Below are positions 42,036 to 64,000 of a stretch of 64,000 nucleotides of DNA, piece after piece; the stretch's first letter is position 1; every line of letters starts with the position of its first letter. The notes below the pieces were generated by a model, which saw only the letters and a list, made by a program, of their open reading frames with translations, made no database searches and had not been told where the DNA came from. Where the stretch lies: the NCBI GenBank assembly GCA_965222155.1, contig CBDCTH010000012.1, positions 2,816,001 to 2,880,000 on the forward strand. The letters run 5' to 3'. Source of the DNA: Gammaproteobacteria bacterium (lineage in GTDB: Bacteria > Pseudomonadota > Gammaproteobacteria > Eutrophobiales > Eutrophobiaceae). Made by a program: the position numbers and the translations under genes.

Positions 42036-42508
42036 ATTTGAGCCATGCGTTGTTATCACTGAAGAAGACCGAATACGAGACTGATCTATTGCGTAGACTT
42101 AGACTCATGAATAATACTGCACTCTCGTATACTGAATGGACACAATCCAGTGATCCGAATTTCAAGAGTCCGACAAAGGCAAAAGCTTATTCATTGGCCC
42201 GTACCGTGAACTTAAATCCACTTCCAAAACCTCCACCCTTCAGAGAACACCCGGTTTGGGTAATAAATTCAAACAAGGGATTACGTTCCCTGAAAAAGCC
42301 TGTTGTACTTCAGGTAAAAATCGAAGGAGACACTTATTTTGCGGAAAATAATTTCCTGGAAATCTGCGGATATGGAGATAGCCCCTTTAAGGCCTTGGAT
42401 GATGCAATAAAAGAACTCGCTTATTGCTATGAGTATTATGGAAACCTTAATGAAAATGAAGTTGTCGGACACGGTGTTACAGTCAGAAATCGATTTCTGG
42501 ATCTGTAA
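42032..42508 (+). CDS. HicB-like antitoxin (partial RNase H fold)
   Basis: IEGDTYFAEN...ICGYGDSPFKALDDAIKEL resembles the HicB core; upstream of a HicA-like gene. Confidence 0.6.
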   Translation: MNLSHALLSLKKTEYETDLLRRLRLMNNTALSYTEWTQSSDPNFKSPTKAKAYSLARTVNLNPLPKPPPFREHPVWVINSNKGLRSLKKPVVLQVKIEGDTYFAENNFLEICGYGDSPFKALDDAIKELAYCYEYYGNLNENEVVGHGVTVRNRFLDL

Positions 42509-47834: not shown

Positions 47835-49754
47835 TCACCACTCGCTCAACCCCCATAAATTTGTACCAACTGCGACCAAACGCTCATTCCCATGTATCTG
47901 CATGTTTTCTGCAACTCCCCTTATTTCAGACAAACGTCGCTTCAATTCTTGACTACTTAGAGGTTCACCTGCTTCCTCCAATATCTGAATAAAAGAGTCA
48001 ATCGTTTCGATTCGATCGCCAGCCGTCATTCCAGAATCTGCTCTTGCCCAAACCATACGGTTTAAAAAAGTAATTTTTGAAGAACGTGCAATGCACATAC
48101 GTAACACGTAGTGGTCTAGCTCTTCCAGAACACCAGGGAACTGAGTGGTCAACTGTTCGATGATTTCTTCGGAATGCCACTGCTTATTGATAGGAGCTTG
48201 ATAAAGCATATGCTCTACTACGCGGCAAATACTTTGACGTTTGGAAGCGGGCAACGGGCAATGATCGATCAACCCATAAGTACCCCGATCAAACGGCCAA
48301 ACACTCTCTCTTATAAGAGCATTATGAGCTGTTCGTTCATCTACCTCTTTACCCAATAATTCACTTGCCCTTTTAGCAATTTCAGTAAAATGCAACGGAC
48401 CTTCTGCTTGAGCAAGAACTGCAGTCACCGCTGATTCTGCCGATTTCCCAAAGGCAATTAATAATGCTTGCGAGTCTTCGTCTTCGTATTGTAGAAACTC
48501 ATCGAATATTTCATGCAAAAGAGGAACCAATTCCCGTGAACTGTATTCGGACAAACTAGTTTCTATATATTGTTTGATATCGCTTCGCCCCCACTGCTTT
48601 TCTTCAGCTTTTTGTTTTAATCTAGCGCGAAGCTCACGTACTAAAACATCCCATTCATTTTGGTTGATTCTTGTTACAACATTTCTCCCGGCTGCTGTGA
48701 TAACACAGACTGCATTTTTTGAAAATAACTGTATCGTTTGGGCAAGGTAAACATAGTTGTCCTCAAATCCTTTAAACCACGTATCTTCAATCTCCAACAG
48801 TTCCAAAATAAGTGGTTCTTCTCGGTCCAGTAATAGCTGTCCGATACGGATGCCAATCATATCGTCCCAGTATTCCTGGGCAATAATACGATTAACGTAT
48901 TTTGTTTGGCGTTGTCTTACCCGTTCTCGAGTTACATCAAGTATTTCGCCAATTTCTTCTAATGTTAGAAGTTTTCCTTTATGCCCAAGACGTCCCTGCA
49001 ATACAATTCTGTCCACTTCATCTAACTCATCTAACGTCCTTTCCAGATGTGTTATCAAGGGCAATTGCGCCACATGAGAATTCAAACGAACCAAATAGCT
49101 TTTATCAATTGTGTCTTCTGGCGTTACACCTAAGCCATCTGGCGGCCAGCTTTCCAATTTTGTCCCCAATGACAAGCCGTACGCGGTCAGTGCATCCTTA
49201 ATTTCTTTCAAGGACGTTTTACCCAGATTGGGCATTTTTAATAACTCAACTTCCGTACATTGAACCAGTTCGCCAATATAACGAATGCTGTTTGCTCCCA
49301 TGCAATGTGTGGAACGTACAGACAACTTCAAATCAGCTATCGGACGTAACAAATTTAGGTCAACTTCTGGCTCCGGCTCATCAACTGGATGTAACTGGAC
49401 CAAGTCTACTTCCGGTTCTTCAATCTCATAACCCCACTGATTTAGAGCCAGATAGCAGGGTGTTACTGCCTCATTCAGCTTGATATGTGTAATTACATTT
49501 ACGCTATTTTTGTATACTTCGGGCAGTGCCCATTTCACCGCGCCTGAATACAGCACTTTGCCTGAAGTATTCTCTGGAAGCTCAATGTGATTATTAACTT
49601 GAGGTCTTGTAAAACCGCAGTGGATGATGGCAGTCTTAGCCGCGTCAGACCGTCTATTCCATACTTGTTGCAAACTATCTAATTCACGAACGGTGACAAT
49701 TTCTTCGACCTGATTGTTTTTAACTACAATCAGGTAAAGTTTAAGCGCGGACAT
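47835..49754 (-). CDS. 639-aa protein with RpoA alphaCTD, sigma70 region 4 HTH and HARE-HTH/RNAP-delta-like winged helices; last gene of the dnd-pbe operon
   Basis: [14 protein letters not shown]...[20 protein letters not shown]...[13 protein letters not shown] (49131-49352); [18 protein letters not shown]; [14 protein letters not shown]...RGTYGL; [14 protein letters not shown]...[11 protein letters not shown]. Confidence 0.85.
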
Positions 49755-49756
49755 AA

Positions 49757-50131
49757 CTAATCCAATAACTTATCCCAGGGTAGCTTGCCCATGTTTTTAT
49801 CATAAGCATCATAAAAATCCCGAATACCCTGCTCTCCGAAACGCTCAACTATATGATAAATTGCTTCACCCTGCTTCTGTAAATTTGCTGCATCAACAGC
49901 AAAAAACAATGCCTTATCCGGGTCTAACTCACCCACACGAAATGCATTATCGGTTTTCTCTGATAAAGGCTCAGGTGTTATGCCCTTCTTTACCCCCAAA
50001 GCTACAGCTAGGCGATATAAATCGAATTTGATCAAAGTTTGTCCGCTGGCTTCACTATTCAGAGAATCAAGCATTTCATCAAGGTAAGCATTCGCTTGTT
50101 TGGTTAAACCGATTCGTGGCGGCTCTGCCAT
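49757..50131 (-). CDS. Small protein, PbeD-like by position
   Basis: 124 aa, tightly coupled to the SMC-like ATPase; [11 protein letters not shown] helix; fourth gene of a helicase/small/ATPase/small module after dndE. Confidence 0.55.
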
Positions 50132-52117
50132 TTACATCACCCTATCAATACGAGATTGCGTCGCGGAAACACGTTTGATTTCATAGCGCGCACCAATGCG
50201 CGAGGCAAAAACTTCCGTATCTTGCTTTGCATGAAGCTCACCTTCGTGTACTAACAATACAACCTGTTCAGACATATCAGGCAGGTACTGCAGAATATTT
50301 TTGCGGTGTTTGGGGTCTAATCGCCCTAAAGGGGTATCCATAACAATTGGTGCCTTCGTACCTGAAGTTTTATTAAGACCATCAATTAACGACAGCGCCA
50401 CGACCTGCTCTGCACCGGCACTGCGTTCATTTAGTATTCGCCCCCCTTGGTCCAAAATAGACAAACCATAACTTGGGTTAATTTTCAGATCCGAATAAGT
50501 TTTTTCCGTGGTTATTTGTTTAAAAGCTTTTGTGGCATGAGCTTGGACATCATCTTTTAATTTAAGACGTAGTTGATCGATGCCTTTAGCAAAGATCGTC
50601 TCTAATTGTTGCAATCTGTCTACACGCTGATTACTAACAGAACTTTGAACTCCCCCAAGCTTGGCTATTAATTGAGATATTTTTGCTTGCGTTTCAATAT
50701 TTTTTTCCCTTTTTTTATCCGCTTCTTCAATCCCAACCTCAACTTTAGCTAATAACTTCGACCAGCTTTCGCGTTTTTCTCGTTTCCGCATGATTTCCTC
50801 TGTATCAAAACCCTTTATTTCTTCTTCGATATCATTTCGCTTATTTTCAATAGCCATCAAATTTACTTTTTTCTGTGTGACCTTCCCCATATTAGCAATT
50901 ATTCGAGTGACCTCATTTTCTGAGCGTATACCTTCAAGATTATCAATAGTTTTATTGATTTCCGTTAGCTTATTAAAATCTACACTTTTGCCTGACTCCT
51001 TAGCCAGCAATTTGTTTAATTTTTGCTGTAATGGCAGCCTGATACTGTCGGGTATATCCTGCCCACAGGTATTACAAACTTCTTTATCTTCAAGAGACTT
51101 CTTCAATCCATCTATCTCGCCCTGCAGACTGATAGACTCACGCATAATCTGTTGATGCTTTTCGCGGTTTTCTTTCAAGTCGTTAACTATGGCTTGAACA
51201 CTATTAGCTAATACATCCTTCCAAACTGTTTGTAATAATTTATGGGTGTCATCATTGGCTTGTTTAATTTCGTCTTCAAAATTCTTTTGTTGAGCAGCTA
51301 ACCTGATAAGCTCCATTTTTTTATTTTGTACTACTTCTGTGTTTTTCAAAAAGTCGTCGAGATTATCAATTTTTTCCTGAAAATCTTCTTTTTGAGAATT
51401 TAAGTCTCTAAGGTCATTCTCTATGCTTTCCAGTTTGATCTCGTGATTTTGTTGATCTTGCGCGAACTTACGCAGGTCTTCATATTTTTGAGCATCTTTA
51501 CGTTGGGCAGTACGTGCGTACTTCAACAATTCCCGTAATTCATCTCTCGCATGCACTAATGCTGGAACACCCAATACAGATTCGATATGTTCCTTAATTT
51601 TCTTGCCTTGTTCACTTTCTTCGATTAAAAGGTTTTCATATTCCTGTAATAACTCGCCATCAAATAAAAAAAAGCGTGATACTTCTCTTGGCATTATCTG
51701 GTTAATTTCATTATTGATTGCATCACCTATTATGGGAGTTCCGTCGATTCTTAGGCCAATGACCTCCCTAAAATCGGCATTGTTCCTAGCTTTTGATGTG
51801 TTTTCAAGCTTCTCAATCTTGCGCTCTAGCTGATAGCTTCTTCCATCGTGATTAAAATATAAGGAAACAGACATTGTCCAATCTCCCTCATCTGTGGCAT
51901 CACGATTGACCAGATTTAACCTGGGAATTTCACGTAGGTGACGACCTAGAGCAACCCCGTAAAACCCCCAGCGGATTGCATTTAAGAAACTTGTTTTTCC
52001 CCGCATATTATCGCCAAAGAGCAACATCACATTTTGTGTTTCATGCTGGGGAAACTCGATTTCCTGTTTGCCCTTGAAGGGCATAAAATTATGGAAAATT
52101 ACTTTTTTTACTTTCAT
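50132..52117 (-). CDS. SMC/Rad50-like ABC ATPase, PbeC-like
   Basis: GDNMRGKT, FFLFDGE, coiled coils with CNTC hook, RSAGAEQ signature, IVMDTPLGRLD, LLVHEGE. Confidence 0.85.
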   Translation of the reverse strand: MKVKKVIFHNFMPFKGKQEIEFPQHETQNVMLLFGDNMRGKTSFLNAIRWGFYGVALGRHLREIPRLNLVNRDATDEGDWTMSVSLYFNHDGRSYQLERKIEKLENTSKARNNADFREVIGLRIDGTPIIGDAINNEINQIMPREVSRFFLFDGELLQEYENLLIEESEQGKKIKEHIESVLGVPALVHARDELRELLKYARTAQRKDAQKYEDLRKFAQDQQNHEIKLESIENDLRDLNSQKEDFQEKIDNLDDFLKNTEVVQNKKMELIRLAAQQKNFEDEIKQANDDTHKLLQTVWKDVLANSVQAIVNDLKENREKHQQIMRESISLQGEIDGLKKSLEDKEVCNTCGQDIPDSIRLPLQQKLNKLLAKESGKSVDFNKLTEINKTIDNLEGIRSENEVTRIIANMGKVTQKKVNLMAIENKRNDIEEEIKGFDTEEIMRKREKRESWSKLLAKVEVGIEEADKKREKNIETQAKISQLIAKLGGVQSSVSNQRVDRLQQLETIFAKGIDQLRLKLKDDVQAHATKAFKQITTEKTYSDLKINPSYGLSILDQGGRILNERSAGAEQVVALSLIDGLNKTSGTKAPIVMDTPLGRLDPKHRKNILQYLPDMSEQVVLLVHEGELHAKQDTEVFASRIGARYEIKRVSATQSRIDRVM

Positions 52118-52122
52118 AACAA

Positions 52123-52320
52123 CTACCGGCCGTCATTTTTATTAAGACTGGCCTCAACTAGTTCTCGCATTCTTTCGACTGTATTACGACTTGGATCAAA
52201 CTGGTGTTTTTTTTGTAGTTCATAACATTGCTTTATAAGTTGATCATCAACATCTAATCCCTCACGTCCTTTAATATTCAGCAAAAGGGCAATGATATTG
52301 CTTGACTCAGACATCGCCAT
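52123..52320 (-). CDS. Small protein, PbeB-like by position
   Basis: ~63-65 aa, overlaps the helicase stop and ends 5 bp before the ATPase start. Confidence 0.6.
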   Translation of the reverse strand: MAMSESSNIIALLLNIKGREGLDVDDQLIKQCYELQKKHQFDPSRNTVERMRELVEASLNKNDGR

Positions 52321-54430
52321 TCTCTTCCTCCTCTATGCCGTCGCTATCCATTAACCCTACTGGATCAATATCTAATTCTATAGCCAAATTAGCCAATTCA
52401 ATTGCCGCACTACTGTTTAACGCAGTTTTAGCAAACTGGATACCCCTCTGGAACTCACTCTTTAGCAAAGAAAATTGTTCTGGCTCAGACTCCAAACTTA
52501 CCGGCACTACAATGGCATCGAAAAGAACTGCCTTGTATTTATCCTTGCATGTTCTTAAAACACGTCCTCGCCTTTGAATAAATTGCCTTGGATTCTGGGA
52601 AGAAGCCAAAATAATTGCGTGCGAAATTTTAGGTATATTGACTCCCTGATCCAAACATTTGATAGAACAGAGTATACCCCCGAAATTCTCAAAATATTCA
52701 AGGGTTGCTGTAGTATCACTCTCCATATTCGTATGGTATTCCAACGGAGAAAATCCTTCACGCTTTAAAGAATCCATAACTTGTCTTAATTGAAACTGAT
52801 CCTCACAATAAATGAGCCAGCTCTCGCCCTCATGATACTGTTTCTTTAAGATATCTACAGTGAGAGGAGTTTTTGCTTTAGCCTTCTTCGCTATCCTCGA
52901 GCGTTGGATGATTAAGTTTTGTAAGTATGGCGAAATATGTACATTTCCATCCCTATCTCGTTTGGAACGTGCAAACTCCTTTGAAATCTTATCGGTTTCT
53001 TTCGCCCACTGCTCTGACTCTTCCGCATTAAGCCGAACAGTCACAGGAAAATACTCATAGGGCACAAGACGCCTATCGTTTATCGCATCTACTAATGTAT
53101 ACGGAGGTTGAACAATTACACCAAAATAATTCAGTATTTTGGATGTGCCCTCAGGGTCACCATATCTTTTGGGTGTCGCGCTCAATCCGAGCCTTGGCCC
53201 TGAATCGATAGTTAGTGCTTTAGAGTTCTCTCTACTCCCAACTTCATGTACCTCATCGGCAATTAGCATGATATGTTTACCTTGATTAAGAGAAGCTAGA
53301 AAAGCATCTGTACGCGCTGTCTGCATCGTCACTAATACAACTCTTTTTCCTAAGCCCTGTAACGGTGATGTAAAATCAAACAGTCGCCTGTCTTTTTTCC
53401 ATCTGTTGTGTCCATCACCTGCCTTTAATAGATGCACTCCTTCAATTTCTTCAATAAGTTCTACAGCCCATTGACGATGTAACAGCTTATCTGGAACTAA
53501 AATAATAGCTACGCCTTGAGGCTCCAAGTGTTCTTTGAGGGCGGTGATGGTAGTGAACGTTTTACCGCTACCAGTTGCGTGTTCTAAAATTCCTTTTTTG
53601 TCCTGTTTTTTCCACTCAGCAATAGCTTTTAACTGATGCTTTAGAGGTTTGCGTATTTCATGTGAAGGAGACTCTTCTTTGATTTTATGTTCTGCCAGTT
53701 GATGACCAAGACTGAAAAAATCAATGATATCTCCAGAGTTAATATCATCCAAAGAACTTTTCGCTACCGTTTTGAGCTTTTCTATTCCCACTTCAGGAAA
53801 CGGTATTACTTCCAGATCCCGTACCTGACTATTCCATAGCTTTTCAAAATATTCCTGGTCGCGCCCTACTTGTCTCTCATCTCTACCTTCACGCCAACTA
53901 CAGAATACATCCAGCGTTTCATGATTTCCTCTTTCACACCAACCAGTCCAAGTTTCATTAATTGATCCTTTGAAACTAACGGCATTGTTAAGCTCATCAT
54001 AGAAAATACCCAATTTCGCGTGATAATCACCTTGAGCCTCAGGTAAAAAAGCGAGTTTTACCTCCATTACACCCAGTGAAATTAATGTGGCCAATGCTTC
54101 TGTATTTTTTGCAACCGGCTGATTGGCTAACAAAAAGTCTATATCCCTACTAAGGGCGCTATATGCACCGTCAAATTTGTTTTTATAACCCGTATCAATG
54201 GCTTCAATGTCGTCTTCTGTCAGGTATGGAGAGCTTACCAAGCGTATTTTTCCGCCTCGTTTCACAAAGTTGATGATATCGGGACCAATTAGGATAAAAA
54301 CTGAAGAGCGAAAATAGCCTACAGACCGATTGTATCCGACAGCCTCGGAAAGACATGGACGATAAAAGGCTTCAACCAAATCTGTATCACCGGTAAAATA
54401 TTCCTCTTGTAGATGAATATCTTTTAACAA
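52307..54430 (-). CDS. PLD-nuclease/SF2 helicase fusion, PbeA-like (phosphorothioation-associated defence)
   Basis: VGYFRSS, HAKLGIFYD...GSINET (HKD), ATGSGKT, DEVH, GLSATP, QRRGRVLR; directly downstream of dndE. Confidence 0.85.
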   Translation of the reverse strand: MLKDIHLQEEYFTGDTDLVEAFYRPCLSEAVGYNRSVGYFRSSVFILIGPDIINFVKRGGKIRLVSSPYLTEDDIEAIDTGYKNKFDGAYSALSRDIDFLLANQPVAKNTEALATLISLGVMEVKLAFLPEAQGDYHAKLGIFYDELNNAVSFKGSINETWTGWCERGNHETLDVFCSWREGRDERQVGRDQEYFEKLWNSQVRDLEVIPFPEVGIEKLKTVAKSSLDDINSGDIIDFFSLGHQLAEHKIKEESPSHEIRKPLKHQLKAIAEWKKQDKKGILEHATGSGKTFTTITALKEHLEPQGVAIILVPDKLLHRQWAVELIEEIEGVHLLKAGDGHNRWKKDRRLFDFTSPLQGLGKRVVLVTMQTARTDAFLASLNQGKHIMLIADEVHEVGSRENSKALTIDSGPRLGLSATPKRYGDPEGTSKILNYFGVIVQPPYTLVDAINDRRLVPYEYFPVTVRLNAEESEQWAKETDKISKEFARSKRDRDGNVHISPYLQNLIIQRSRIAKKAKAKTPLTVDILKKQYHEGESWLIYCEDQFQLRQVMDSLKREGFSPLEYHTNMESDTTATLEYFENFGGILCSIKCLDQGVNIPKISHAIILASSQNPRQFIQRRGRVLRTCKDKYKAVLFDAIVVPVSLESEPEQFSLLKSEFQRGIQFAKTALNSSAAIELANLAIELDIDPVGLMDSDGIEEEENGDV

Positions 54431-54481
54431 CAGAAAAACCCCTGATAAGGCCTACGAAACTTCTATTCGGTTCATCATGCC

Positions 54482-54886
54482 TTAATTACTCTGTTTATCT
54501 TTATGTTGCCTCGTGAGAGAAAGCAAATCGGACAAACATCTGACCTTTCCCGATGTCCCTAAGTAGCCGATACCACGGTGGAGATGTAATTTAAACTGCT
54601 GCGCCAACGTTGTATCGTCAGTTGGTAACTTGTCACGAAGACAACGCGTTTTCAACACAGCGATCAGTAATTCTTCATTACCAGGGCCTGTAAAAGTCCG
54701 CCAGGACATCTCTACGTTGCTATCAGTAACAATATCCATTTTGGGGGGTATACTTTTTTCCGCCAAAGAAAGGCAAAATGCCCACCTGCAGAGAATATTC
54801 CATTGAGATATACCAGTTTTGCGCTTCAAATTAGACAAACGGTCTTTTGCTTCACTGGACAGCCGGATGTTTCCTAGGCCAGTCAT
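54482..54886 (-). CDS. dndE: DNA sulfur modification protein DndE
   Basis: IRLSSEAKDRLSNLKRKTGISQWNILCRWAFCLSL, VEMSWRTF, LHLHRGIGYL. Confidence 0.95.
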   Translation of the reverse strand: MTGLGNIRLSSEAKDRLSNLKRKTGISQWNILCRWAFCLSLAEKSIPPKMDIVTDSNVEMSWRTFTGPGNEELLIAVLKTRCLRDKLPTDDTTLAQQFKLHLHRGIGYLGTSGKVRCLSDLLSLTRQHKDKQSN

Positions 54887-56871
54887 ACACTCTCCAGAAA
54901 TCCGTTAGAAACAGTGGTTGCACCCGTTGCGTCATCATAGTCTAAGTGGTAACTCTTTCCGACCCATGGGCGCAATCGATATAGATAATCGCCAGCAATT
55001 TCTTCATCTGTGGTAAACAGCAATGTTTGATGGCTCGCGTTGGGGAGATATCGCTCGACCAGACGGTCCCGGTGAGTTGAATCGAGACGTCCCATTGGCG
55101 TGTCAATGGCAACAGGCAGTAATTTACCTGACGCTTTTGCCATTCCCCATAGCAGGGCGACAGCCAGTAACTGTCGCTCGCCGGCTGATAACTGCTCGGA
55201 GGAAATGGGGGTTTGTTCCATGTCGCGCAGAAGAACAGCAAAGGTCTCCGGATGGATCCGTAATGTAGAAATCAACCTGTCTTTACGTAGTAAGGATTGA
55301 TAACTTTCCAGTGCCAGACGTTCCACGCTCCCGATATGACGGTGCAAAACGGCGGAACCGAACTCCGCCAGTGTCTGTCTCGCTAATTGTGAGTGTTGCA
55401 TAAAACGTTCGTCGTCCCTGTGTGATAACTTAGATTCGGCATTCTTTTCCCATAAGGTATTGATCTGGGATTCGAGACGATCACTCTCCCTGCGTATTTT
55501 TTCAAGTTCACTGTCTATACTTGTGATTTCATTTTCCAGTCTTATGATTTTGGTAACCAGTAAATCACGTTTTTTGACAATCTCATCAATAGAATCTTCT
55601 GGAGGAATTCCCGCTTTTTCTAACAGCGCCGCTTTCATTTCATCCCCTAGCTTGTGCTGCTTCACGAGTATATCCCTGACACTTTTTTCCAAACGAGACA
55701 GTTTGCTTTGCAGAAACGTATTCAGTCGCGTGACATTAGCATCACTTATGTTTAGCGGGGTTTTACCGGCTGCCAGTTCCTCCTGTTTTTCTAAATCGTC
55801 CTTGCAGAATTCTTCCAAAGCTTCCACCACGGCAGATGTATTCGACAGGGTTTGTACCAAACGAAGCATTCTAGTATCGCGCTCGCGCAGGTTTTCCACC
55901 ATGGCACGAGCCTGTGCAATCTTCTGTCCCTTTGTTGCATAACAGGCTACATCGTGCAATAGATCCTCGATCAAGAGCAATGGCAATTCGCTATTTGCGA
56001 GTTCCGCCATTTGGATATTACAAGCATCAAGGTTAGCTTCTACTTTGTTTACGCGGCGTTGTATTTCCTCGCGCCGGTCACGTAGTTCGCCCCCCAACAT
56101 TCGATACTCCTCCATCACGCAAGCTAGATCATCTCTGACCATGTCCAGTTCCTGTGTTTGTAGAACGGCTCTTTTTTCCACCTTCCGTTCGATTTGTTTA
56201 CGGAGAGACCTTGACTCCTTTTCTTTTTGGCGGATGATTTCGTTGTCTACGGCAGGCATTGTCGTACCCTGCCGCCGTCGTTCCAGAACTCGCAGATCCT
56301 TTTGCAGGCGTTCTACCACGTCTATACCAAACAGGTTGCGTACTCCGTTTGCGATCAGTTGACGGGCGCCATCTGGTGACGCGTAGGCGGCAATTTTTTC
56401 CCCATCAAAGAAGAACAGATGAGCAATATTCACCGGGATGATGTCATTGACATATTGGCCCCAGTTTTCCGTGAGAGATTTGTCAATACATTGATCTCGG
56501 GTAACCTCCAGTTTTTCCTTGACGCTATTGTTGGCACCTTCACTTTGCCAAGCACGAGTCACGTGGTAACAGGTTTCCACACTGTCTACAGTGCATCGAA
56601 AAACAACGGAAATGGAAGCCTGTCTCCTCGGTGAATGTTTATGGATTTTACTGGCGAGGAAGTCTTTATAACCACTACCATTGCGCCCTGCACACGTAGC
56701 TGCGGGGCCGAACAGGCACAGCTGTAGAGCGTCCATCAGTGTTGTTTTGCCAGCGCCGTTCAGTCCGCCAAACAACACAATCGGCTTATCCGAGGACGGC
56801 GGAGTCAAATCAATTTCCTGCACGCCAGCATACACCCCGAAGTCGTGCAATGTGATTTGATCAAGAATCAT
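54883..56871 (-). CDS. dndD: DNA sulfur modification protein DndD
   Basis: GGLNGAGKTT, FFFDGEKI, LSAGERQLLA, IDTPMGRLDS, ASHQ; between dndC and dndE. Confidence 0.95.
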   Translation of the reverse strand: MILDQITLHDFGVYAGVQEIDLTPPSSDKPIVLFGGLNGAGKTTLMDALQLCLFGPAATCAGRNGSGYKDFLASKIHKHSPRRQASISVVFRCTVDSVETCYHVTRAWQSEGANNSVKEKLEVTRDQCIDKSLTENWGQYVNDIIPVNIAHLFFFDGEKIAAYASPDGARQLIANGVRNLFGIDVVERLQKDLRVLERRRQGTTMPAVDNEIIRQKEKESRSLRKQIERKVEKRAVLQTQELDMVRDDLACVMEEYRMLGGELRDRREEIQRRVNKVEANLDACNIQMAELANSELPLLLIEDLLHDVACYATKGQKIAQARAMVENLRERDTRMLRLVQTLSNTSAVVEALEEFCKDDLEKQEELAAGKTPLNISDANVTRLNTFLQSKLSRLEKSVRDILVKQHKLGDEMKAALLEKAGIPPEDSIDEIVKKRDLLVTKIIRLENEITSIDSELEKIRRESDRLESQINTLWEKNAESKLSHRDDERFMQHSQLARQTLAEFGSAVLHRHIGSVERLALESYQSLLRKDRLISTLRIHPETFAVLLRDMEQTPISSEQLSAGERQLLAVALLWGMAKASGKLLPVAIDTPMGRLDSTHRDRLVERYLPNASHQTLLFTTDEEIAGDYLYRLRPWVGKSYHLDYDDATGATTVSNGFLESV

Positions 56872-58375
56872 CTGTATGTGTGTCTATTTCCTGTTTTTCA
56901 GCCACCGCGGTGAGTATCTGCTGACGTTGCCGGGCACGACCGACGGCATCTTCTTCATCACTATAATAGTTGCGCTCAATTGCGCTTTGCAGAGATTGAA
57001 ACACACCGGTACGGCGTATTGCCGGTTTATGGCGGCTTCCTATGGCAAGCAGCTCTCGTACCATTTCGTATTGATTCTGATTTTCGCCGCACAATTCACG
57101 TAGTAGTTGCATTTCCTGAGCACTGAAAACCGCACTATTATTAAGCTTACGCCCAGGATATTCTTCGCCGGTGGCGTCCTGATAAATACGTGGGAGATTA
57201 TCTTCCATCTCATGTTTTTCCACGACCCAGATGCGGCGAATCTCCTCCATTTCTTCCAGCTGAATCAGAGACAGGTTGCGGACGTATTCCGGTCCAATAC
57301 GGCGCACGATTGCTTGCGTTTCCAGCAGACGATGCAGTAGATGTTCGCGAAATTCTTGCTTATAGGGGCCAGGAATAGTTCGTCCATGAAAAAGCTGAAC
57401 TTGGCCATTCATGCGCCGGTAGTCTCGTAAAGGGCGGTCACCACCTTCTGGCATTGCGCGAAAATCAATCTCAGCCCGAATCTCCAAAAGCGGCATCATC
57501 CATTGCTTTTCCTCGTCGTTATGAATCATAGCCTGCATAGATTTGTCTTTTTCCACCAGCGTGCAAACCCAGCAACCGAAACGACTGTCACCACAACTTG
57601 GCGTCCCACTGGACACCACCAGCGGACACTCACCACCTTCCGTTGCACCTTTATACATGCTGAACAGATCCATGTTATCATGCCCCCACGGATTAGACTT
57701 TTCCAGTAGAAAAAGCCAAACATCATCATTTGCCCAATCCTCAATCGGCGTGTAAATGAACGAGTTGGAAAGATTGGCGTTCGGACTGATTTTTGCTCGT
57801 ACTCGCCCTTCTTCATGTCGGTCCATTGTTCGCGCGCGAGCTACACTTTCCGCCTTGCGGGAACCGAGAACTAAAAGTGTTTCACCATGTTTGTCAACTA
57901 CGGACGAAATGAAACGATGCGCCGGACGGATTTTTAATCGCTCAGTACACCAACGAAATTTTTGGCGTGGCGCTGCGTACCCTCGTCCAATCAGATTGAC
58001 CCAAAAACTATCAGCCAACTCTGGCGTTAAGCGATGCGAGGTGATGGGTAACCCTTGTGCCTCGGCGGCGTTTTGCATCTTGCTCAACGAATTACCCACC
58101 CAGGCGGCGACAATCGGGTTTTCTACCAATGTGTCTGTGCTGATGACATGAACGGGCTTATGTGCCCGTTTCGTTCCAATGCTTTGCAATGCAAACCAAA
58201 CCAATTGCAGGGTTGCCGTCGAGTCCTTGCCGCCACTGTATCCGACCGTCCAGGGAATATCATCGGCAAGATACACTTCCACCAATTCCTGCACGATAAC
58301 AGCAACACCCTCCTCAAAATCACCGCACGCATCAAAATATGAACAAGGTATGTTACCGTTTTGTTTCGCAGTCAT
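56861..58375 (-). CDS. dndC: DNA phosphorothioation sulfurtransferase DndC
   Basis: YSGGKDS, DTLVENP, IGRGY, FRWCTERLKI, ECPLV...SCGDSRFGCWVC. Confidence 0.96.
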   Translation of the reverse strand: MTAKQNGNIPCSYFDACGDFEEGVAVIVQELVEVYLADDIPWTVGYSGGKDSTATLQLVWFALQSIGTKRAHKPVHVISTDTLVENPIVAAWVGNSLSKMQNAAEAQGLPITSHRLTPELADSFWVNLIGRGYAAPRQKFRWCTERLKIRPAHRFISSVVDKHGETLLVLGSRKAESVARARTMDRHEEGRVRAKISPNANLSNSFIYTPIEDWANDDVWLFLLEKSNPWGHDNMDLFSMYKGATEGGECPLVVSSGTPSCGDSRFGCWVCTLVEKDKSMQAMIHNDEEKQWMMPLLEIRAEIDFRAMPEGGDRPLRDYRRMNGQVQLFHGRTIPGPYKQEFREHLLHRLLETQAIVRRIGPEYVRNLSLIQLEEMEEIRRIWVVEKHEMEDNLPRIYQDATGEEYPGRKLNNSAVFSAQEMQLLRELCGENQNQYEMVRELLAIGSRHKPAIRRTGVFQSLQSAIERNYYSDEEDAVGRARQRQQILTAVAEKQEIDTHTDDS

Positions 58376-58601: not shown

Positions 58602-60686
58602 CCCAAGTTTAACACCAACCCCCCGAATTTTGGTTGATTTTGGCTGATTTTCACCTGCAACTGCCGGTAAGTGATTGATTTTTCATGGTGAGGTGGGGGA
58701 GTTTAGCAAATGTAGTGCCATAATATTATATTTGTCTCTTGACGTGCCTTCCCCCGTCCGCTATCCTACCCCCCCTGTTCATCCGTCGCACCCGTACCCG
58801 TCATACCGACACCGGCCAGAAGTATTTCACCTACCGCCTGGTGCGCACCGAACGCATAGGGGAGAAAGTCCGCCAACGCACCCTGCTCAACCTCGGCAGT
58901 CACTACGATATCGACCGGGCCCACTGGCCGATGCTCTGTGCCCGCATCGAGCACTGGCTGGCCGGCCAGGCCGATTTGCTTGATCCGGATTGTCCGGCGG
59001 CGGTGGAAACCGAAGCGCAACGCAGCGCCGCCCAACTGCTGGCCCGCGCCCCGGCGCCCCCCGGCGCGGCGTCCCCCGAGGAGGTGCTGCACCGGGTGGC
59101 CGTCGATTCCCTGGCCCTGCTGCGGCCACGCTCGGTGGGGGTGGAAGCGGTAGGCCTGTGGGCCTTGCAGCAACTGGGCGTGCCGGCCTTGCTGGCACGA
59201 CTGGGGTTGACCGGGCCGCAACAGGCCGCCGCACTGGGGTCAATCATCGGGCGCCTGGCGGCACCGGGGTCGGAACGGGCCACCCATGCCTGGCTGGGTC
59301 AGCGCAGCGCCCTGGGCGAGTTGCTGGGGGTAGACTTTGAAGCCATGAGCGCCCTGCAACTGTATCGTGCCTCGGACGCCTTGCTGGCACACCGGAACGA
59401 CATCGAACGCCACCTGTTCCGGCAAGTGACTGATTTGTTCGGCTTAGCCCCCACCGTGACCCTGTATGACTTGACCAACACCTGCTTCGAGGGGGAGGCC
59501 GGGGCACAGCCGAAGGCGCGCCGCGGCCACTCGAAGGAGACACGCAGTGACTGTCCGTTGCTGACCTTGGGGCTGGTGCTGGACGGCAGTGGCTTTGTAC
59601 GACGCTCCCAGGTATTTGCCGGTACTGTCCGGGAAGACCGTACCCTGGCGGCCATGCTGACGGCGTTAGCAGCGCCGACGGGGGCCTTGGTGGTCATGGA
59701 CCGGGGGATTGCCACTGAGGCCAACATCACCTGGTTGCGTGAGCAGGGCTACCGTTACCTGGTGGTGAGCCGTGCCCGACACCGCCAATTTGACCTGGAG
59801 CAGGCCGTGACGATTGACACCGCCGCCGGGCAGCCGTTGCAACTGCATCGGGAACAGGGCGAGGACGAGACCCGCTTGTACTGTTATTCGGCCGCACGGG
59901 CCGAGAAGGAGAACGCCATGGCGGCCCGCTTCCAACAACGTTTCGAGGCCGGCCTGCAACGCCTGGCCGACGGGCTGGCGCGGCCGCGTACCCGCAAGGG
60001 CTTGAACAGCATCCACCAACGCCTCGGTCGGTTGCGTGAGACGAGTCGGGGGATGGCACCGCATTACGACATTACGGTAACGCCCGACTCCCGCGGCAAG
60101 CAGACCGCGTCCATCACCTGGCAGCGGCGGCCCCATGACGGTTCCCTGCTGACGCATCCCGGGGTGTATTGCCTGCGTAGCAACCTGACTGACTGGGATG
60201 CGGAGACGCTCTGGCGTACCTATACCCTGCTGACCGACCTGGAGGCCGTGTTCCGCGCACTGAAATCGGAGTTGGGTCTGCGTCCGGTGTGTCACCAGAC
60301 GCCGCCACGCGCCGAGGGGCACCTGTTCATCACCGTGTTGGCCTATCAGGCGGTGCAAACTATCCGCCGGCGGCTGCGGGCGCACGGGGAAACGGCCAGT
60401 TGGTCTACCTTGCGCCGTCTGCTGGGGGGACAGCAGCGGGTGACCGCCACCTTCCGGTGTGCCGACCGGCGTACCCTGCATGTACGCAAGGCCACGCGCC
60501 CGGAAGCCGAGCAGCAGGCCCTCTACAGGCTATTGGGCATCGAGGAGAACCCTGGCGGTACGCAAAAGACGGTGGTGTGATACGTTAACTGACCGGCAAA
60601 GGGCACTTTGTAGTGCCAGAAGCCAAATTTATAAATTCTAATTGATTGAATAATAAGAACTTATAAATAGGGGTGTTAAACTTGGG
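58602..60686 (+). mobile_element. IS1634-family insertion sequence with CTAG target duplication
   Basis: Inverted repeats cccaagtttaacacc / ggtgttaaacttggg; CTAG on both flanks; removing the element and one CTAG restores colinearity with ppx. Confidence 0.92.
58739..60580 (+). CDS. IS1634-family DDE transposase (start uncertain)
   Basis: FIRRTRT...KVRQRTLLNLG, LYDLTNTCFEG, RGHSKE.RSDCP, VVMDRG, LEAVFRALKSELGLRP, HLFITVLAY. Confidence 0.9.
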   Translation: MTCLPPSAILPPLFIRRTRTRHTDTGQKYFTYRLVRTERIGEKVRQRTLLNLGSHYDIDRAHWPMLCARIEHWLAGQADLLDPDCPAAVETEAQRSAAQLLARAPAPPGAASPEEVLHRVAVDSLALLRPRSVGVEAVGLWALQQLGVPALLARLGLTGPQQAAALGSIIGRLAAPGSERATHAWLGQRSALGELLGVDFEAMSALQLYRASDALLAHRNDIERHLFRQVTDLFGLAPTVTLYDLTNTCFEGEAGAQPKARRGHSKETRSDCPLLTLGLVLDGSGFVRRSQVFAGTVREDRTLAAMLTALAAPTGALVVMDRGIATEANITWLREQGYRYLVVSRARHRQFDLEQAVTIDTAAGQPLQLHREQGEDETRLYCYSAARAEKENAMAARFQQRFEAGLQRLADGLARPRTRKGLNSIHQRLGRLRETSRGMAPHYDITVTPDSRGKQTASITWQRRPHDGSLLTHPGVYCLRSNLTDWDAETLWRTYTLLTDLEAVFRALKSELGLRPVCHQTPPRAEGHLFITVLAYQAVQTIRRRLRAHGETASWSTLRRLLGGQQRVTATFRCADRRTLHVRKATRPEAEQQALYRLLGIEENPGGTQKTVV

Positions 60687-60721: not shown

Positions 60722-61816
60722 TCAGCTGAAATTTGGCTGCATCGGTCTCTCTGCAGAGTCCGTCATTTTCACTGCATCCTCTAACACCTTCTCGGCGGCT
60801 TTCAGATTTTCAACCGTTTTATCAATGTCCAGCTTGTCACTGGCGTTGAAGGCTAACCAGTCTTTCCATTGGGCGACAGTCATAGTATGTCCCACCCTCA
60901 TCACCTTCGGCCTGTATACGAATTTTTCGCCTGCTTCAGATATCAGTTTGTGCCACCTGTCCTTCATCTCATATCGCTTATCTTTGTCTGCAATGCACAC
61001 CTTGAAACAAAGTTTTGCATCATCATTTTCAAGTTGAAGGTAGAGACCATCTTCCCCTTCCAGTTTGATCCAGTGCCACCAGAATCCCAGAAAGCCCCCC
61101 GATGGATTACTAACATAACCCCAACTCCACCAGACAGATCTCTCTTTCAATGTCAGTGCTTCCTCAAGGCACCGATAGAATCCTTGCCAAGAACCCCATG
61201 ACCAACTTTTTCTTTCTGCTTTTTTCCAATATTTGAAGCTGTCGGTGTCATTCTCCATTTCTTGCAGATATGCTTTGAAGTCAGTAAGTATCGGGTTGGA
61301 ACCATGGTAGTCATTCAGCACCGACAAAAAATCTGAGCGCTGAAAGACTTTGTACTTGTTCTTTGCACCTTCTATTTCTATTCGTTCTATACGTTGGACA
61401 TCGGCAAGAGGCTGATTGCCTGTCTTGAGATAAATCGGGTAGATATCATCTTTATCAACGACACCAAGTGTCGTCTTCTTATCTCGAACTGCCTCGTAGT
61501 ACCTTTGCAATTGTCTGTCGTGGTCGTCTGTTTGCGTTTTGTCCTCAATTAAAAGCACATGCTTGCCATTGATGCGGGCAAGTACATCAATGCTCTGATC
61601 TTGTTGTTTGATTTCAGCACATTCGATTTCCTCGTACAGGGCGGTCTTATGTTTGCCAAGTAACGCCTGTACAAACCCACGACCACAAGCGTGCAATGCT
61701 TCATCCTTCTGGATATTCTTCTTTTTCGACCAGTCAATCAGCCAACAGATCATTGCGTCTTGCGACAACTCTTTGGTCGCATACTTAAATATATTGGGTC
61801 TGCTTGTGCTTGCCAT
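60722..61816 (-). CDS. PD-(D/E)xK nuclease family protein
   Basis: PNIFKYATKELSQDA, IDVL...LLIEDKT, QLQRY; start set at ATG 61816. Confidence 0.8.
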   Translation of the reverse strand: MASTSRPNIFKYATKELSQDAMICWLIDWSKKKNIQKDEALHACGRGFVQALLGKHKTALYEEIECAEIKQQDQSIDVLARINGKHVLLIEDKTQTDDHDRQLQRYYEAVRDKKTTLGVVDKDDIYPIYLKTGNQPLADVQRIERIEIEGAKNKYKVFQRSDFLSVLNDYHGSNPILTDFKAYLQEMENDTDSFKYWKKAERKSWSWGSWQGFYRCLEEALTLKERSVWWSWGYVSNPSGGFLGFWWHWIKLEGEDGLYLQLENDDAKLCFKVCIADKDKRYEMKDRWHKLISEAGEKFVYRPKVMRVGHTMTVAQWKDWLAFNASDKLDIDKTVENLKAAEKVLEDAVKMTDSAERPMQPNFS

Positions 61817-61871
61817 AGTATTGATCTTCTTTCGTACATTATAAAGAAAGCGTTCATACCGAATTGAGTCA

Positions 61872-62117
61872 TCAAAATTCTCTGTACTCATATTCGAAGC
61901 AACTGACCTTGTCCACAAAGTCATTATTAGACTGTATGGCCTTTTTATTTTCTCCCCGCCATTGCTCAACTTTGCTCCACGCCAGTTTTTCCCACAACAC
62001 CTGCTCCAACGTTGCCGATAAGTTGATGTTCAGCGCCCTGGACTTATTTAGTAACTCACTGTTTAAAATAAGGTATATGGTTTTCTTTGGGGCCTGGTAG
62101 TCATACAATGGTTCCAT
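61872..62117 (-). CDS. ccdA: CcdA family antitoxin (orphan)
   Basis: APKK...LNSELLNKSRALNINLSATLEQ...WRGENKKAI...YREF; followed only by a TGATG-coupled MTQF stub resembling a ccdB start. Confidence 0.8.
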   Translation of the reverse strand: MEPLYDYQAPKKTIYLILNSELLNKSRALNINLSATLEQVLWEKLAWSKVEQWRGENKKAIQSNNDFVDKVSCFEYEYREF

Positions 62118-62564: not shown

Positions 62565-64000
62565 ATGAATAAACAAAACTCAGATCAAGTCATCAGCGAT
62601 GTAATGCAGATGGAAGAGCGAAACCGTCAAGCGCTGTCATTATTACTGGACCTACAACGAGAGAAGGATGGACATCTTTTTGCACTCAGTACCCGCATGG
62701 GGGAAACCTCATCCTACGTCACTACCGTGTCCTTGGGATGGGTTGTTCAAAATGTTCATTTCGCCGGGGACTTACCAATATTCAAGGGAAAAGTCGACAA
62801 GATAACAAAAAAAGTGCCTGTTGATGAAAATACAATCCGCGACATCCAGCAACGACAACCTGATTGGGAACGGCAACTACCAATGGCTCTTTATCTGGTC
62901 TTACGAAAGAATCACAAATTCCCTCCACTCCTGGTGGTCGGATATCAGGATTGGGTGTATAGCGATAACGCCGAGCAGTGGGGATTGGATAAACGCGCCA
63001 TGCAAAACAGCCTCACGGTAATGCCGCTGGAGCCCAAAGCCATTTACTTCGATTTAGATGTCAAGAACACCAAATACTATGCTTTAGATGGTCAACATCG
63101 CCTGATGGCGATCTTGGGTCTGCATGAGCTTTTGACTAAGGGAAAGTTATTCTCGCTAGATGTCAATGGGAAACCTAAACCAAACCGCTTAATCACTCGT
63201 GAGGCTATTATTAAACAAATACAAAAGGAAAACGGAGAAGACGAAGGAATGATCCACAATCGGTTAGAGAGATTGATGTCCGAACGCATTGGTATTGAGA
63301 TTATCCCCGCTGTCGCCAATGGGGAAACATATAAAGAAGCACTTTTTCGGTTGCGTGGCATTTTTATCGACGTCAATGAAAATGCAAAAAGGCTGAAGGA
63401 GGGCGAACTCATCCTGCTGGACGAAAATGTAGGATTCCGGATAGTTGTCCGAAATATTATGGTATCGCATGACTTGCTCAAAGGTAAAATTGATCAAAAC
63501 AAAACGCATCTTCCCGAGTCATCCGAGTGTTATACAACTTTGAAGACACTCGTGGAAATAGCGAGAAATTATCTTGGTGCCAAAACAGAGTTTTCTCCCT
63601 GGAAAAATCCTATGTTTGGAAATAAAAATTTTGGATTTATGCGGCCTCATGAATACGAACTCTCTGAAGGTACAATCGCACTGAACAGTTATTTTGATGC
63701 CTTGAAGCAGTTGCCGTCACATGCGCAGTTCATCCAAGGGAAGCCAGCTGGTGATATTAGGAAGAAAAATGGGGAAGACAATATACTCTTTCGTCCAGTG
63801 GCCCAAATGGCTCTTGCTGAGGCAGTAGCAGCTCTTGAGCGTGAAAATGAGATGTCTCTGGAAAGTATCATCAGTGAACTAGCCCGCCAAGAAGAGGCTG
63901 GTCAACTGAAACTTCGGGAGCGCACGGCGCCATGGTTTGGAGTACTGTGTAATCCCCTTGATCAGAAAATGCGCACTAAGAAAGAGTATCAAATCCTTTG
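62565..64000 (+). CDS. DGQHR-domain (DndB-like) protein, runs off the window end
   Basis: Open frame from ATG 62565 (MNKQNSDQ...) with QQRQPDWERQ, NHKFPPLLVV, YALDGQHRLMAI, IFIDVNENAK; absent from the ORF track because no stop falls inside the window. Confidence 0.85.
   Translation, partial: MNKQNSDQVISDVMQMEERNRQALSLLLDLQREKDGHLFALSTRMGETSSYVTTVSLGWVVQNVHFAGDLPIFKGKVDKITKKVPVDENTIRDIQQRQPDWERQLPMALYLVLRKNHKFPPLLVVGYQDWVYSDNAEQWGLDKRAMQNSLTVMPLEPKAIYFDLDVKNTKYYALDGQHRLMAILGLHELLTKGKLFSLDVNGKPKPNRLITREAIIKQIQKENGEDEGMIHNRLERLMSERIGIEIIPAVANGETYKEALFRLRGIFIDVNENAKRLKEGELILLDENVGFRIVVRNIMVSHDLLKGKIDQNKTHLPESSECYTTLKTLVEIARNYLGAKTEFSPWKNPMFGNKNFGFMRPHEYELSEGTIALNSYFDALKQLPSHAQFIQGKPAGDIRKKNGEDNILFRPVAQMALAEAVAALERENEMSLESIISELARQEEAGQLKLRERTAPWFGVLCNPLDQKMRTKKEYQIL

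Follow-up and report, generated by a model that had tools for sequence, protein, structure and literature searches.

Published accounts of the Pbe anti-phage systems conflict on whether Pbe cuts DNA. The locus studied here is a dndCDE-pbeABCD island within a 64,000-nt stretch of gammaproteobacterial DNA (the window, by which we mean this whole stretch), where a further gene follows pbeD. A preliminary description of the window had proposed that the product of this open reading frame (ORF; 47835-49754, minus strand) is assembled from modules of RNA polymerase (RNAP), namely an RNAP alpha C-terminal domain (alphaCTD), a sigma-70 region 4, and winged helices of the HARE-type helix-turn-helix (HARE-HTH) class. 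We refer to the protein as X5 and propose the name PbeE. We report here that X5 is a conserved fifth gene of one Pbe branch and is new to the Pbe descriptions searched. We also propose, giving the idea about an even chance of being right, that X5 is a non-catalytic DNA-reading subunit of that PbeABCD branch, which directs the complex to promoter-like DNA.

A fifth gene is conserved behind pbeD in one Pbe branch

A total of 109 X5 homologues was found. The gene neighborhood was compared at 26 loci with an X5 relative, which came from genomes (L088, L089, L090, and L125), metagenomes (L091-L110), genome contigs (L004), and a plasmid (L116). Three of these loci (L099, L104, and L106) are too short to judge, leaving 23 informative loci; many of them are related to one another, and the statistics of L100 and L101 are identical. 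The genes for PbeC and PbeD were located directly upstream of X5, on the same strand, in 20 of the 23 informative loci, and PbeA and PbeB were also found upstream in those 20 wherever the contig extends far enough. As for the remaining loci, L110 holds a PbeA-like/DndD-like cluster that is rearranged and lies on the opposite strand, and L004 and L090 hold none. The gene order pbeA-B-C-D-X5 persists at X5 identities of about 60%, 40-45%, and about 30%. The co-occurrence check set out in the preliminary description thus came out in favor of a conserved fifth gene linked to pbe across genomes, within one Pbe subclade.

The modification partner of the module varies: dndCDE was present in the flanks of 10 loci, and a homologous DNA methyltransferase in those of 6 others. 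No dnd genes were found in the retrieved flanks of the methyltransferase-linked Pbe modules with X5. Because the partner is either dndCDE or a methyltransferase, X5 travels with the Pbe module and not with phosphorothioation.

X5 is rare: within the same class it was detected in 3 of 399 other genomes, and within the phylum in 2 of 400 (one of these two positives, G764, was left out of further analysis). In the class sample, two genomes with a PbeA more than 50% identical to that of the window carry X5, and a genome with a PbeA at 32% gave no X5 match. Of 25 plasmids that carry a PbeA-like gene, full length in 17 of them, only the closest (47%) had X5. Thus, X5 is restricted to a Pbe branch whose PbeA is at least about 44% identical to the window PbeA, and this X5-bearing branch is mainly proteobacterial. 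A tblastn search of X5 against 50,697 phage records matched nothing but pieces of rpoA or sigma; X5 itself was not found there. A full-length-alignment scan of genome contigs keyed on the sigma region-4 motif returned nearly all ordinary sigma factors, and only L004 was useful.

X5 is assembled from RNAP-type and HARE-type modules

The domain content of X5 was examined by Pfam, structure modeling, and profile comparison. Besides the alphaCTD and sigma region 4 (Table 1), Pfam gave a HARE-HTH match at residues 444-475 that is just below the cut-off (E 4.4e-5, 24.2 bits versus 25.9). The scan found no sigma region 2, alpha N-terminal domain, or enzymatic family at E <= 0.01, which agrees with the preliminary description, where no catalytic motif and no sigma region 2 had been seen. 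X5 as an RNAP alpha subunit was rejected because it has no N-terminal dimerization/assembly domain at that threshold; the rpoA models of NCBIfam all score far under their cut-offs (e.g., 93 versus 302 bits). Likewise, X5 as a sigma factor was rejected because no region 2 family was found at E <= 0.01, and the sigma models of NCBIfam align only to region 4. X5, which has neither sigma region 2 nor an alpha N-terminal domain, is therefore not an RNAP subunit; lacking sigma regions 1-3, it is therefore capable of neither region-2 core binding nor -10 reading.

An AlphaFold 2 (AF2) model of X5, built with an alignment of 78 X5 relatives, had a mean predicted local distance difference test (pLDDT) value of 86.3 and a predicted template modeling score (pTM) of 0.58. 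Disorder in the model is confined to residues 115-130 and 208-219, the two linkers flanking the alphaCTD. The same 78 relatives served for the conservation counts below; seven residues are invariant over the whole of X5. Among 22 relatives, the alphaCTD and region 4 were present in 22 and HARE-HTH in 17, and family members range from 640 to 1100 aa with at least seven domains. For the whole X5 model, the Foldseek and VIA results were taken up by alphaCTD chains and were uninformative on residues 296-639. Taken together, the Pfam matches, model fits, and hhalign comparisons bear out the proposed module build, and the motifs named in the preliminary description (LSVRS, PNLGK, SWPP, VTRERVRQ, DRGTYGL, and NLWGLSEW) are all present in the translation. 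Beyond that description, we found an N-terminal domain, a third HARE-type unit, and two helical/winged units at residues 296-437.

The alphaCTD binds A/T-rich DNA in the minor groove. By VIA, the alphaCTD of the X5 model was fitted to solved alphaCTDs at a root-mean-square deviation (rmsd) of 0.6-0.8 Å, among them DNA-bound ones (9zum_E, Z 15.8, 0.8 Å over 77 residues; 3n4m_B, Z 15.2, 0.6 Å over 74 residues). R147 of X5 corresponds to R265 of E. coli alpha (offset +118). According to passages of PMC1874639, alpha residue 265 and its neighbors form the DNA-binding determinant, with N268, C269, and S299 at the DNA surface; the 261 determinant contacts sigma region 4, and the 287 determinant contacts activators. 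When the 78 relatives were aligned, the equivalents of R265 (75/78), N268 (66/78), N294 (64/78), G296 (78/78), and S299 (69/78) were kept. In contrast, the sigma-contact 261 determinant was not kept (E261 position, G30/N15/R9/K8; D259 position, D29/E12/N9/S8), nor was the activator-contact V287 position (V13/D10/S9).

The alphaCTD of the window X5 is 62% identical to RpoA of its own genome over 86 aa, part of the flexible linker included, versus 29% (52 aa) and 28% (94 aa) for X5 and host RpoA in two other genomes (G336 and G037). On these comparisons, close RpoA likeness is limited to the window gene's own subclade. Over 80 proteins, the alphaCTD was present in one copy in 55, two copies in 21, three copies in 3, and no copy in 1. 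Two proteins that are each 81% identical to the window X5, P0012 (639 aa) and P0004 (725 aa), are unequal in number of alphaCTD repeats by one whole repeat, and P0020 (822 aa) has three; these differences suggest that tandem alphaCTD copies were gained or lost recently. A tree of alphaCTDs (109 rows, 72 columns) was poorly resolved. RpoA was nested in it among the RpoA-like X5 copies, and both alphaCTD copies of P0070 fell within the RpoA group, which hints at recapture of the alphaCTD from rpoA; no claim is rested on this tree.

In sigma-70 region 4 of X5, the recognition helix reads R276-E277-R278-V279-R280-Q281, and the best sequence matches in the PDB were group-1 SigA/RpoD proteins, i.e., primary sigma factors (E 2e-8). 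T264, R276, R278, and Q281 are invariant in the 78 sequences, and T275, E277, and R280 are each conserved in at least 90%. The corresponding helix of sigma-70 is R584-E585-R586-I587-R588-Q589, of which passages of PMC12262734 give R584, E585, R586, R588, and Q589 as -35 recognition residues.

The C-terminal half of X5 was modeled as five helix-helix-helix-hairpin units. The units at residues 296-437, in which L308, P314, D324, and W326 are invariant, did not match any of the other units significantly by hhalign. However, the last three units (U3, U4, and U5) are homologous to one another by hhalign, with probabilities of 95% for U3-U5 (E 3.6e-8), 79% for U3-U4, and 81% for U4-U5; U3 (residues 438-500) is the one with the Pfam HARE-HTH match. 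The count of HARE-like winged helices, put at two or more in the preliminary description, is three. In the relatives, PF05066 was matched in 17 of 22 at E <= 1e-3 (best, 1.6e-9), and the RNAP-delta model TIGR04567 aligned to X5 at residues 584-639 only, with 21.1 bits versus a cut-off of 42. A profile of the C-terminal half gave no matches at E <= 1 to PDB sequences. The ESM Atlas returned HARE-HTH clusters at 0.84-0.87 for this half, which we take as a lead only. Separately, proteins of about 351 aa (P0097-P0099 and P0105-P0110), some of them from Saccharibacteria, contain sigma region 4 and HARE-HTH only by precomputed Pfam assignments, and may represent the C-terminal part of X5 in a minimal, ancestor-like form.

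A private N-terminal domain tracks Pbe linkage

The first 112 residues of X5 form a family-specific domain in which W32, H45, F48, R50, P51, and G65 are invariant. When its fold was compared with 48,161 PDB representatives, the 25 best were all class III nucleotidyl cyclases, led by 1ybt_A at a Z of 7.2 and an rmsd of 3.5 Å over 96 residues, in the "middling" range. No Asp or Glu is invariant in the alignment of this domain, so that the metal-binding acidic residues of cyclases are not kept; an active cyclase was rejected for this lack. Since Z is only 7.2 and no acidic residue is invariant, the modeled fold may be, at most, that of an inactive palm-like domain. The ESM Atlas gave no usable match for it.

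A hidden Markov model of the N-terminal domain matched all of the Pbe-colinear members tested but did not match the three unlinked relatives (L004, L090, and L110). In a large protein collection, the longer clusters with this domain also contained PF03118 (109/114) and PF04545 (107/114). There were also nine short matches, eight of which come from contigs no longer than 4.3 kb or have no contig recorded; the other, P0111, is on a 59.6-kb contig. Complex prediction for the PbeD family with the X5 N-terminal domain (score 0.01, mark 0.32) speaks neither for nor against binding.

X5 as a candidate DNA-reading subunit, and its rivals

X5 unites in one chain both RNAP modules for the upstream half of a promoter, the alphaCTD (one to three copies in relatives) and sigma region 4. 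From the anatomy, linkage, and conservation of X5, a course of binding, docking, and licensing can be proposed. The N-terminal domain, which was seen only in Pbe-linked members, would dock X5 on the Pbe core. The alphaCTD/region-4 head would position the complex on A/T-rich, -35-like (that is, promoter-like) DNA, where the HARE-type winged helices would either contribute further contacts or probe the state of the DNA. On invading DNA, X5 would then direct or license both the nuclease-helicase PbeA and the scanning pair formed by PbeC and PbeD, and the partner modification, phosphorothioate or methylation, would spare self DNA. From gene order alone we infer that X5 is coupled to the PLD-helicase/ABC effector, as suggested earlier. 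The preliminary description had also considered reading of promoter or phosphorothioate DNA. Promoter reading fits the kept DNA determinant of the alphaCTD and the -35 helix; phosphorothioate-specific reading is unlikely to be the core job because X5 also accompanies methyltransferase-linked Pbe modules.

The DNA-reading role gives a testable handle. It predicts landing DNA that consists of an A/T tract and a -35-like hexamer, with R147, R276, E277, R280, and Q281 as key DNA-reading residues and the N-terminal domain as the likely docking part. X5 also provides an example of a use of alphaCTD and sigma region 4 beyond transcription, in defense islands, where they serve as portable modules for reading DNA.

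Several observations weigh against this role. Host promoters share the same elements, and the model therefore needs a modification mark to spare self DNA. At two DNA-contact positions of the alphaCTD, the window X5 departs from alpha, with H at N268 (as in 8/78 relatives) and T at K298. With a pTM of 0.58, the model leaves the placement of the domains relative to one another uncertain, and the one-to-one sigma-70 numbering of X5 residues relies on what we take to be the E. coli sequence. Pbe systems without X5 exist or work, including the four-gene archaeal system in the text of PMC6459918; 16 of the 17 plasmids with a full-length PbeA gave no X5 match, and the annotation of two distant plasmid Pbe systems (H31 and H37) lists no X5-like gene. 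Moreover, X5 is split by an IS3-family insertion sequence (IS) on plasmid NZ_CP015441.1 (L116, 11998-15518) and in genome G487 (L125, 5917-10440). These two copies belong to independent Pbe islands; with X5 split in both, its loss is tolerated, and X5 may be costly or dispensable.

Other roles for X5 have to be weighed. As an ordinary regulator, X5 would bind an operator or promoter of its own island, set the expression of dnd and pbe, replace DndB, and stay outside the effector complex. Such a role would suit a protein rich in HTH modules, whose relatives are called 'sigma factor-like helix-turn-helix DNA-binding protein' in public records and whose island has no dndB adjoining dndC (a DndB-like gene is 4 kb off, beyond an IS element). 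We nevertheless regard it as unlikely, given that X5 is the last gene of the operon, 2 nt after pbeD, is large (640-1100 aa and at least seven domains in the family), has a private N-terminal domain that tracks Pbe colinearity, and keeps its place whether the island has dnd or a methyltransferase. A consensus scan for promoter-like sites, which is a weak test, also found no excess in the operon (17 versus 20.4 expected). To a docking adaptor or transcription blocker, in which region 4 would sit on the beta-flap, or the head on UP/-35 DNA, and so couple Pbe to RNAP or stop transcription, we give very little credence. Regions 4.1 and 4.2 are both present, their best sequence matches are primary sigma factors, and the text of PMC6459918 has Pbe halting virus propagation without DNA cleavage; however, the archaeal system that gives this halt phenotype is without X5, and X5 itself lacks sigma regions 2 and 3 as well as the alpha N-terminal domain.

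The preliminary description had raised the possibility of a bait for phage takeover proteins. Phage T4 Alt and ModA target alpha R265, and AsiA binds sigma region 4. As an integrated decoy, X5 would mimic RNAP surfaces with its alphaCTD and region 4, and ADP-ribosylation or binding of the bait by a phage would trip the Pbe effector. If true, this may be an early bacterial integrated decoy of the transcription machinery. We judge a decoy distinctly improbable, and the variant in which the RpoA likeness and one-to-three copy variation of the subclade reflect mimicry refreshed by repeated rpoA capture is as improbable. The 62% identity of the window alphaCTD to host RpoA, the retention of the R265 equivalent (the residue that a bait would need), and the variable alphaCTD copy number, even between the close orthologues P0012 and P0004, speak for it, such variation being seen in arms-race modules. 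Yet the likeness falls to 28-29% in two other genomes; the 261 determinant and V287 are not kept, while the DNA-contact residues are; the DNA-reading residues are the most conserved of region 4; and three HARE-type winged helices would be superfluous for a bait. The bait proposal is thus weakened, with the kept R265 equivalent and the RpoA-like subclade left in its favor.

Layout of the island and neighboring genes

The features of X5 and of its surroundings are collected in Table 1. The island meets X5 at its end: the pbeD stop codon (TAG, 49757-49759) is followed by two bases (TT) and then by the X5 ATG at 49754; X5 is probably translationally coupled to pbeD. G+C content is 0.38-0.43 across 48001-55000 versus 0.53-0.59 in the flanks. 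The start of X5 2 bp after the PbeD-like gene and its AT-rich composition, shared with the pbe module, had both been pointed out in the preliminary description and are visible in the window sequence. Just past the X5 stop, the island ends and a convergent ppx/gppA gene starts.

The operon contains PbeA, PbeB, and PbeC as described for PbeABCD / CxC-ABC, and the position and conserved family of the fourth gene fit PbeD. PbeB matched the Pfam family Sp-DndD under the cut-off (E 3.6e-5). PbeB of these systems is a small, fast-evolving protein, and PbeC has a cysteine hook at its apex; a CxxC lies mid-protein in three PbeC orthologues, as CNTC, CETC, and CPTC. The PbeD-position gene had no match in Pfam, NCBIfam, or PADLOC and matched DndE weakly by hhalign (E 0.018, probability 2.5%); its assignment as a DndE cognate was taken from section 16 of PMC10853773. 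In the consensus scan of the operon, terminator-like sites were not in excess (8 versus 9.9 expected).

Table 1. Positions of X5, its domains, and surrounding features in the window
Feature	Positions	Strand	Basis or remark
X5 (proposed PbeE), whole gene	47835..49754	-	639 aa; ORF list and translation; final gene of island
X5 N-terminal domain, family-specific, alpha/beta, residues 1-112	49419..49754	-	Family alignment; model pLDDT 90.9 (folded alone)
X5 RNAP alphaCTD, residues 131-206	49137..49364	-	Pfam RNA_pol_A_CTD at residues 133-190, E 4.6e-19; VIA fits
X5 sigma-70 region 4 (4.1 + 4.2), residues 218-294	48873..49103	-	Pfam Sigma70_r4 at residues 241-285, E 7.5e-10
X5 two helical/winged units, residues 296-437	48444..48869	-	Model secondary structure; conserved EDxWFKGF stretch
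X5 three tandem HARE-HTH-type winged helices, residues 438-500, 501-576, 577-639	47838..48443	-	Pfam and hhalign
PbeD-position gene, 124 aa	49757..50131	-	Family conserved upstream of X5 in related loci
PbeC, coiled-coil ABC ATPase, central CxxC	50132..52117	-	PADLOC PbeC PDLC02725, E 1e-257
PbeB, small, 65 aa	52123..52320	-	Homologous small ORFs in same place in L088, L089
PbeA, HKD/PLD nuclease fused to superfamily 2 (SF2) helicase	52307..54430	-	PADLOC PbeA PDLC02707, E 6e-211; TIGR04095; PLD_Helicase; Pfam ResIII, Helicase_C
dndE	54482..54886	-	TIGR03184, above cut-off
dndD	54883..56871	-	TIGR03185, above cut-off
dndC	56861..58375	-	TIGR03183, above cut-off
dndC, dndD, dndE together	54482..58375	-	Phosphorothioate modification module
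DDE transposase ORF	58739..60580	+	GC-rich stretch (G+C 0.68 at 59-60 kb)
PD-(D/E)XK nuclease	60722..61969	-	PADLOC PDC-S26, E 1e-8
DndB-family gene	62565..63998	+	PF14072, E 2.6e-11; runs past window end
DEAD/Helicase_C protein with MrfA Zn-binding (MZB) domain, 1804 aa	36621..42035	+	
ORF, 158 aa	42032..42508	+	No family match

Upstream of the operon, the DDE transposase ORF directly precedes dndC and looks like an IS element inserted in the island, between the dnd/pbe operon and the genes for the PD-(D/E)XK nuclease and the DndB-like protein, which share an AT-rich stretch. Because the DndB-family gene was found in this stretch, dndB is present but apart from dndCDE. On the other side of X5, the gene for the 1804-aa helicase is overlapped at its end by the 158-aa ORF, and the two (36621-42508) may form another defense or repair module.

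Side observations were also made at related loci. Directly downstream of X5 in genome G336 (L088, 8383-10616, minus strand), there is a 351-aa gene (PADLOC PDC-M38A / PD-Lambda-5_A) and a 393-aa gene without a match; this pair may represent further defense genes stacked on the island. Genome G487 has a second, identical copy of its IS element upstream of pbeA. At L110 (3764-15030), an X5-like protein that is 25% identical and lacks the N-terminal domain is flanked by a GmrSD_N gene and a Ser/Thr kinase on one side and by a convergent cluster for PbeA-like, 159-aa, and DndD-like proteins and a cysteine desulfurase on the other. In a Polyangiaceae metagenome-assembled genome (L004, 5989-12193), a 1280-aa protein with two alphaCTD matches and sigma region 4, and without the X5 N-terminal domain, comes after a gene for a caspase with bacterial death-like domain 3; because of this neighbor, the alphaCTD/region-4 head also occurs in a different conflict system.

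Comparison with known systems

The window shares the published PbeA-B-C-D order beside dndCDE, as given in the text of Xiong 2019 (PMC6459918) and Krishnan et al. 2024 (PMC10853773). The published cassette has four genes, whereas the branch of the window has a fifth fixed behind pbeD. The parts named in section 16 of PMC10853773 are HKD-SF2, a small protein, an ABC ATPase, a DndE cognate, methylases, and MTaX1, and no component with alphaCTD, sigma, or HARE modules is among the Pbe parts in the text of PMC6459918 or in that section and other passages of PMC10853773. The preliminary description, which held that the described dndCDEA-pbeABCD system has no such component, is in accord with these texts. 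Our literature search found no description of X5, with a passing mention possible in figures, supplements, or older HARE-HTH/ABC-ATPase surveys. In public records, its relatives are annotated as hypothetical, as 'sigma factor-like HTH DNA-binding protein', or as 'alphaCTD domain-containing protein', and PADLOC 2.0 and NCBIfam have no model that recognizes X5 beyond the region-4 overlap with MzaA. Pbe defense-finder models for the X5-bearing subclade should thus gain a fifth component.

X5 shares with the alphaCTD its fold, 62% identity to host RpoA, and a family-wide DNA determinant, but differs from RNAP alpha in that it lacks the N-terminal assembly domain, may carry one to three tandem alphaCTDs in relatives, and has not kept the determinants for sigma and activator contact. 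From sigma-70, it has regions 4.1 and 4.2 with the helix RERVRQ versus RERIRQ; it lacks regions 1-3, and in the model its region-4 helix continues into a further helical domain. Among defense proteins, MzaA of the Mza anti-phage system (NF041931) is, like X5, a large defense-operon protein with sigma-70 region 4. Only this region aligns, however (X5 228-287 versus 638-698 of 726; 34.2 bits versus a cut-off of 800; PADLOC MzaA, E 0.0012). By its description in passages of PMC12839542, PglW of type 2 BREX is akin to X5 in having an alphaCTD-like helical domain followed by three winged HTHs; also by description, PglW is a kinase/nuclease with a STAND-like end, whereas X5 has no enzymatic domain and has sigma region 4 in addition. 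Single-module precedents, with sigma-like HTHs in BrxL and in a DndH variant, are found in passages of PMC10853773 / PMC12839542. Finally, X5 shares its HARE-type winged helices with RNAP delta and with HARE-fused restriction endonucleases; passages of PMC10853773 place such fusions in Dnd neighborhoods and propose the HARE-HTH as a reader of modified DNA. X5 differs from these proteins in having three tandem copies and no nuclease.

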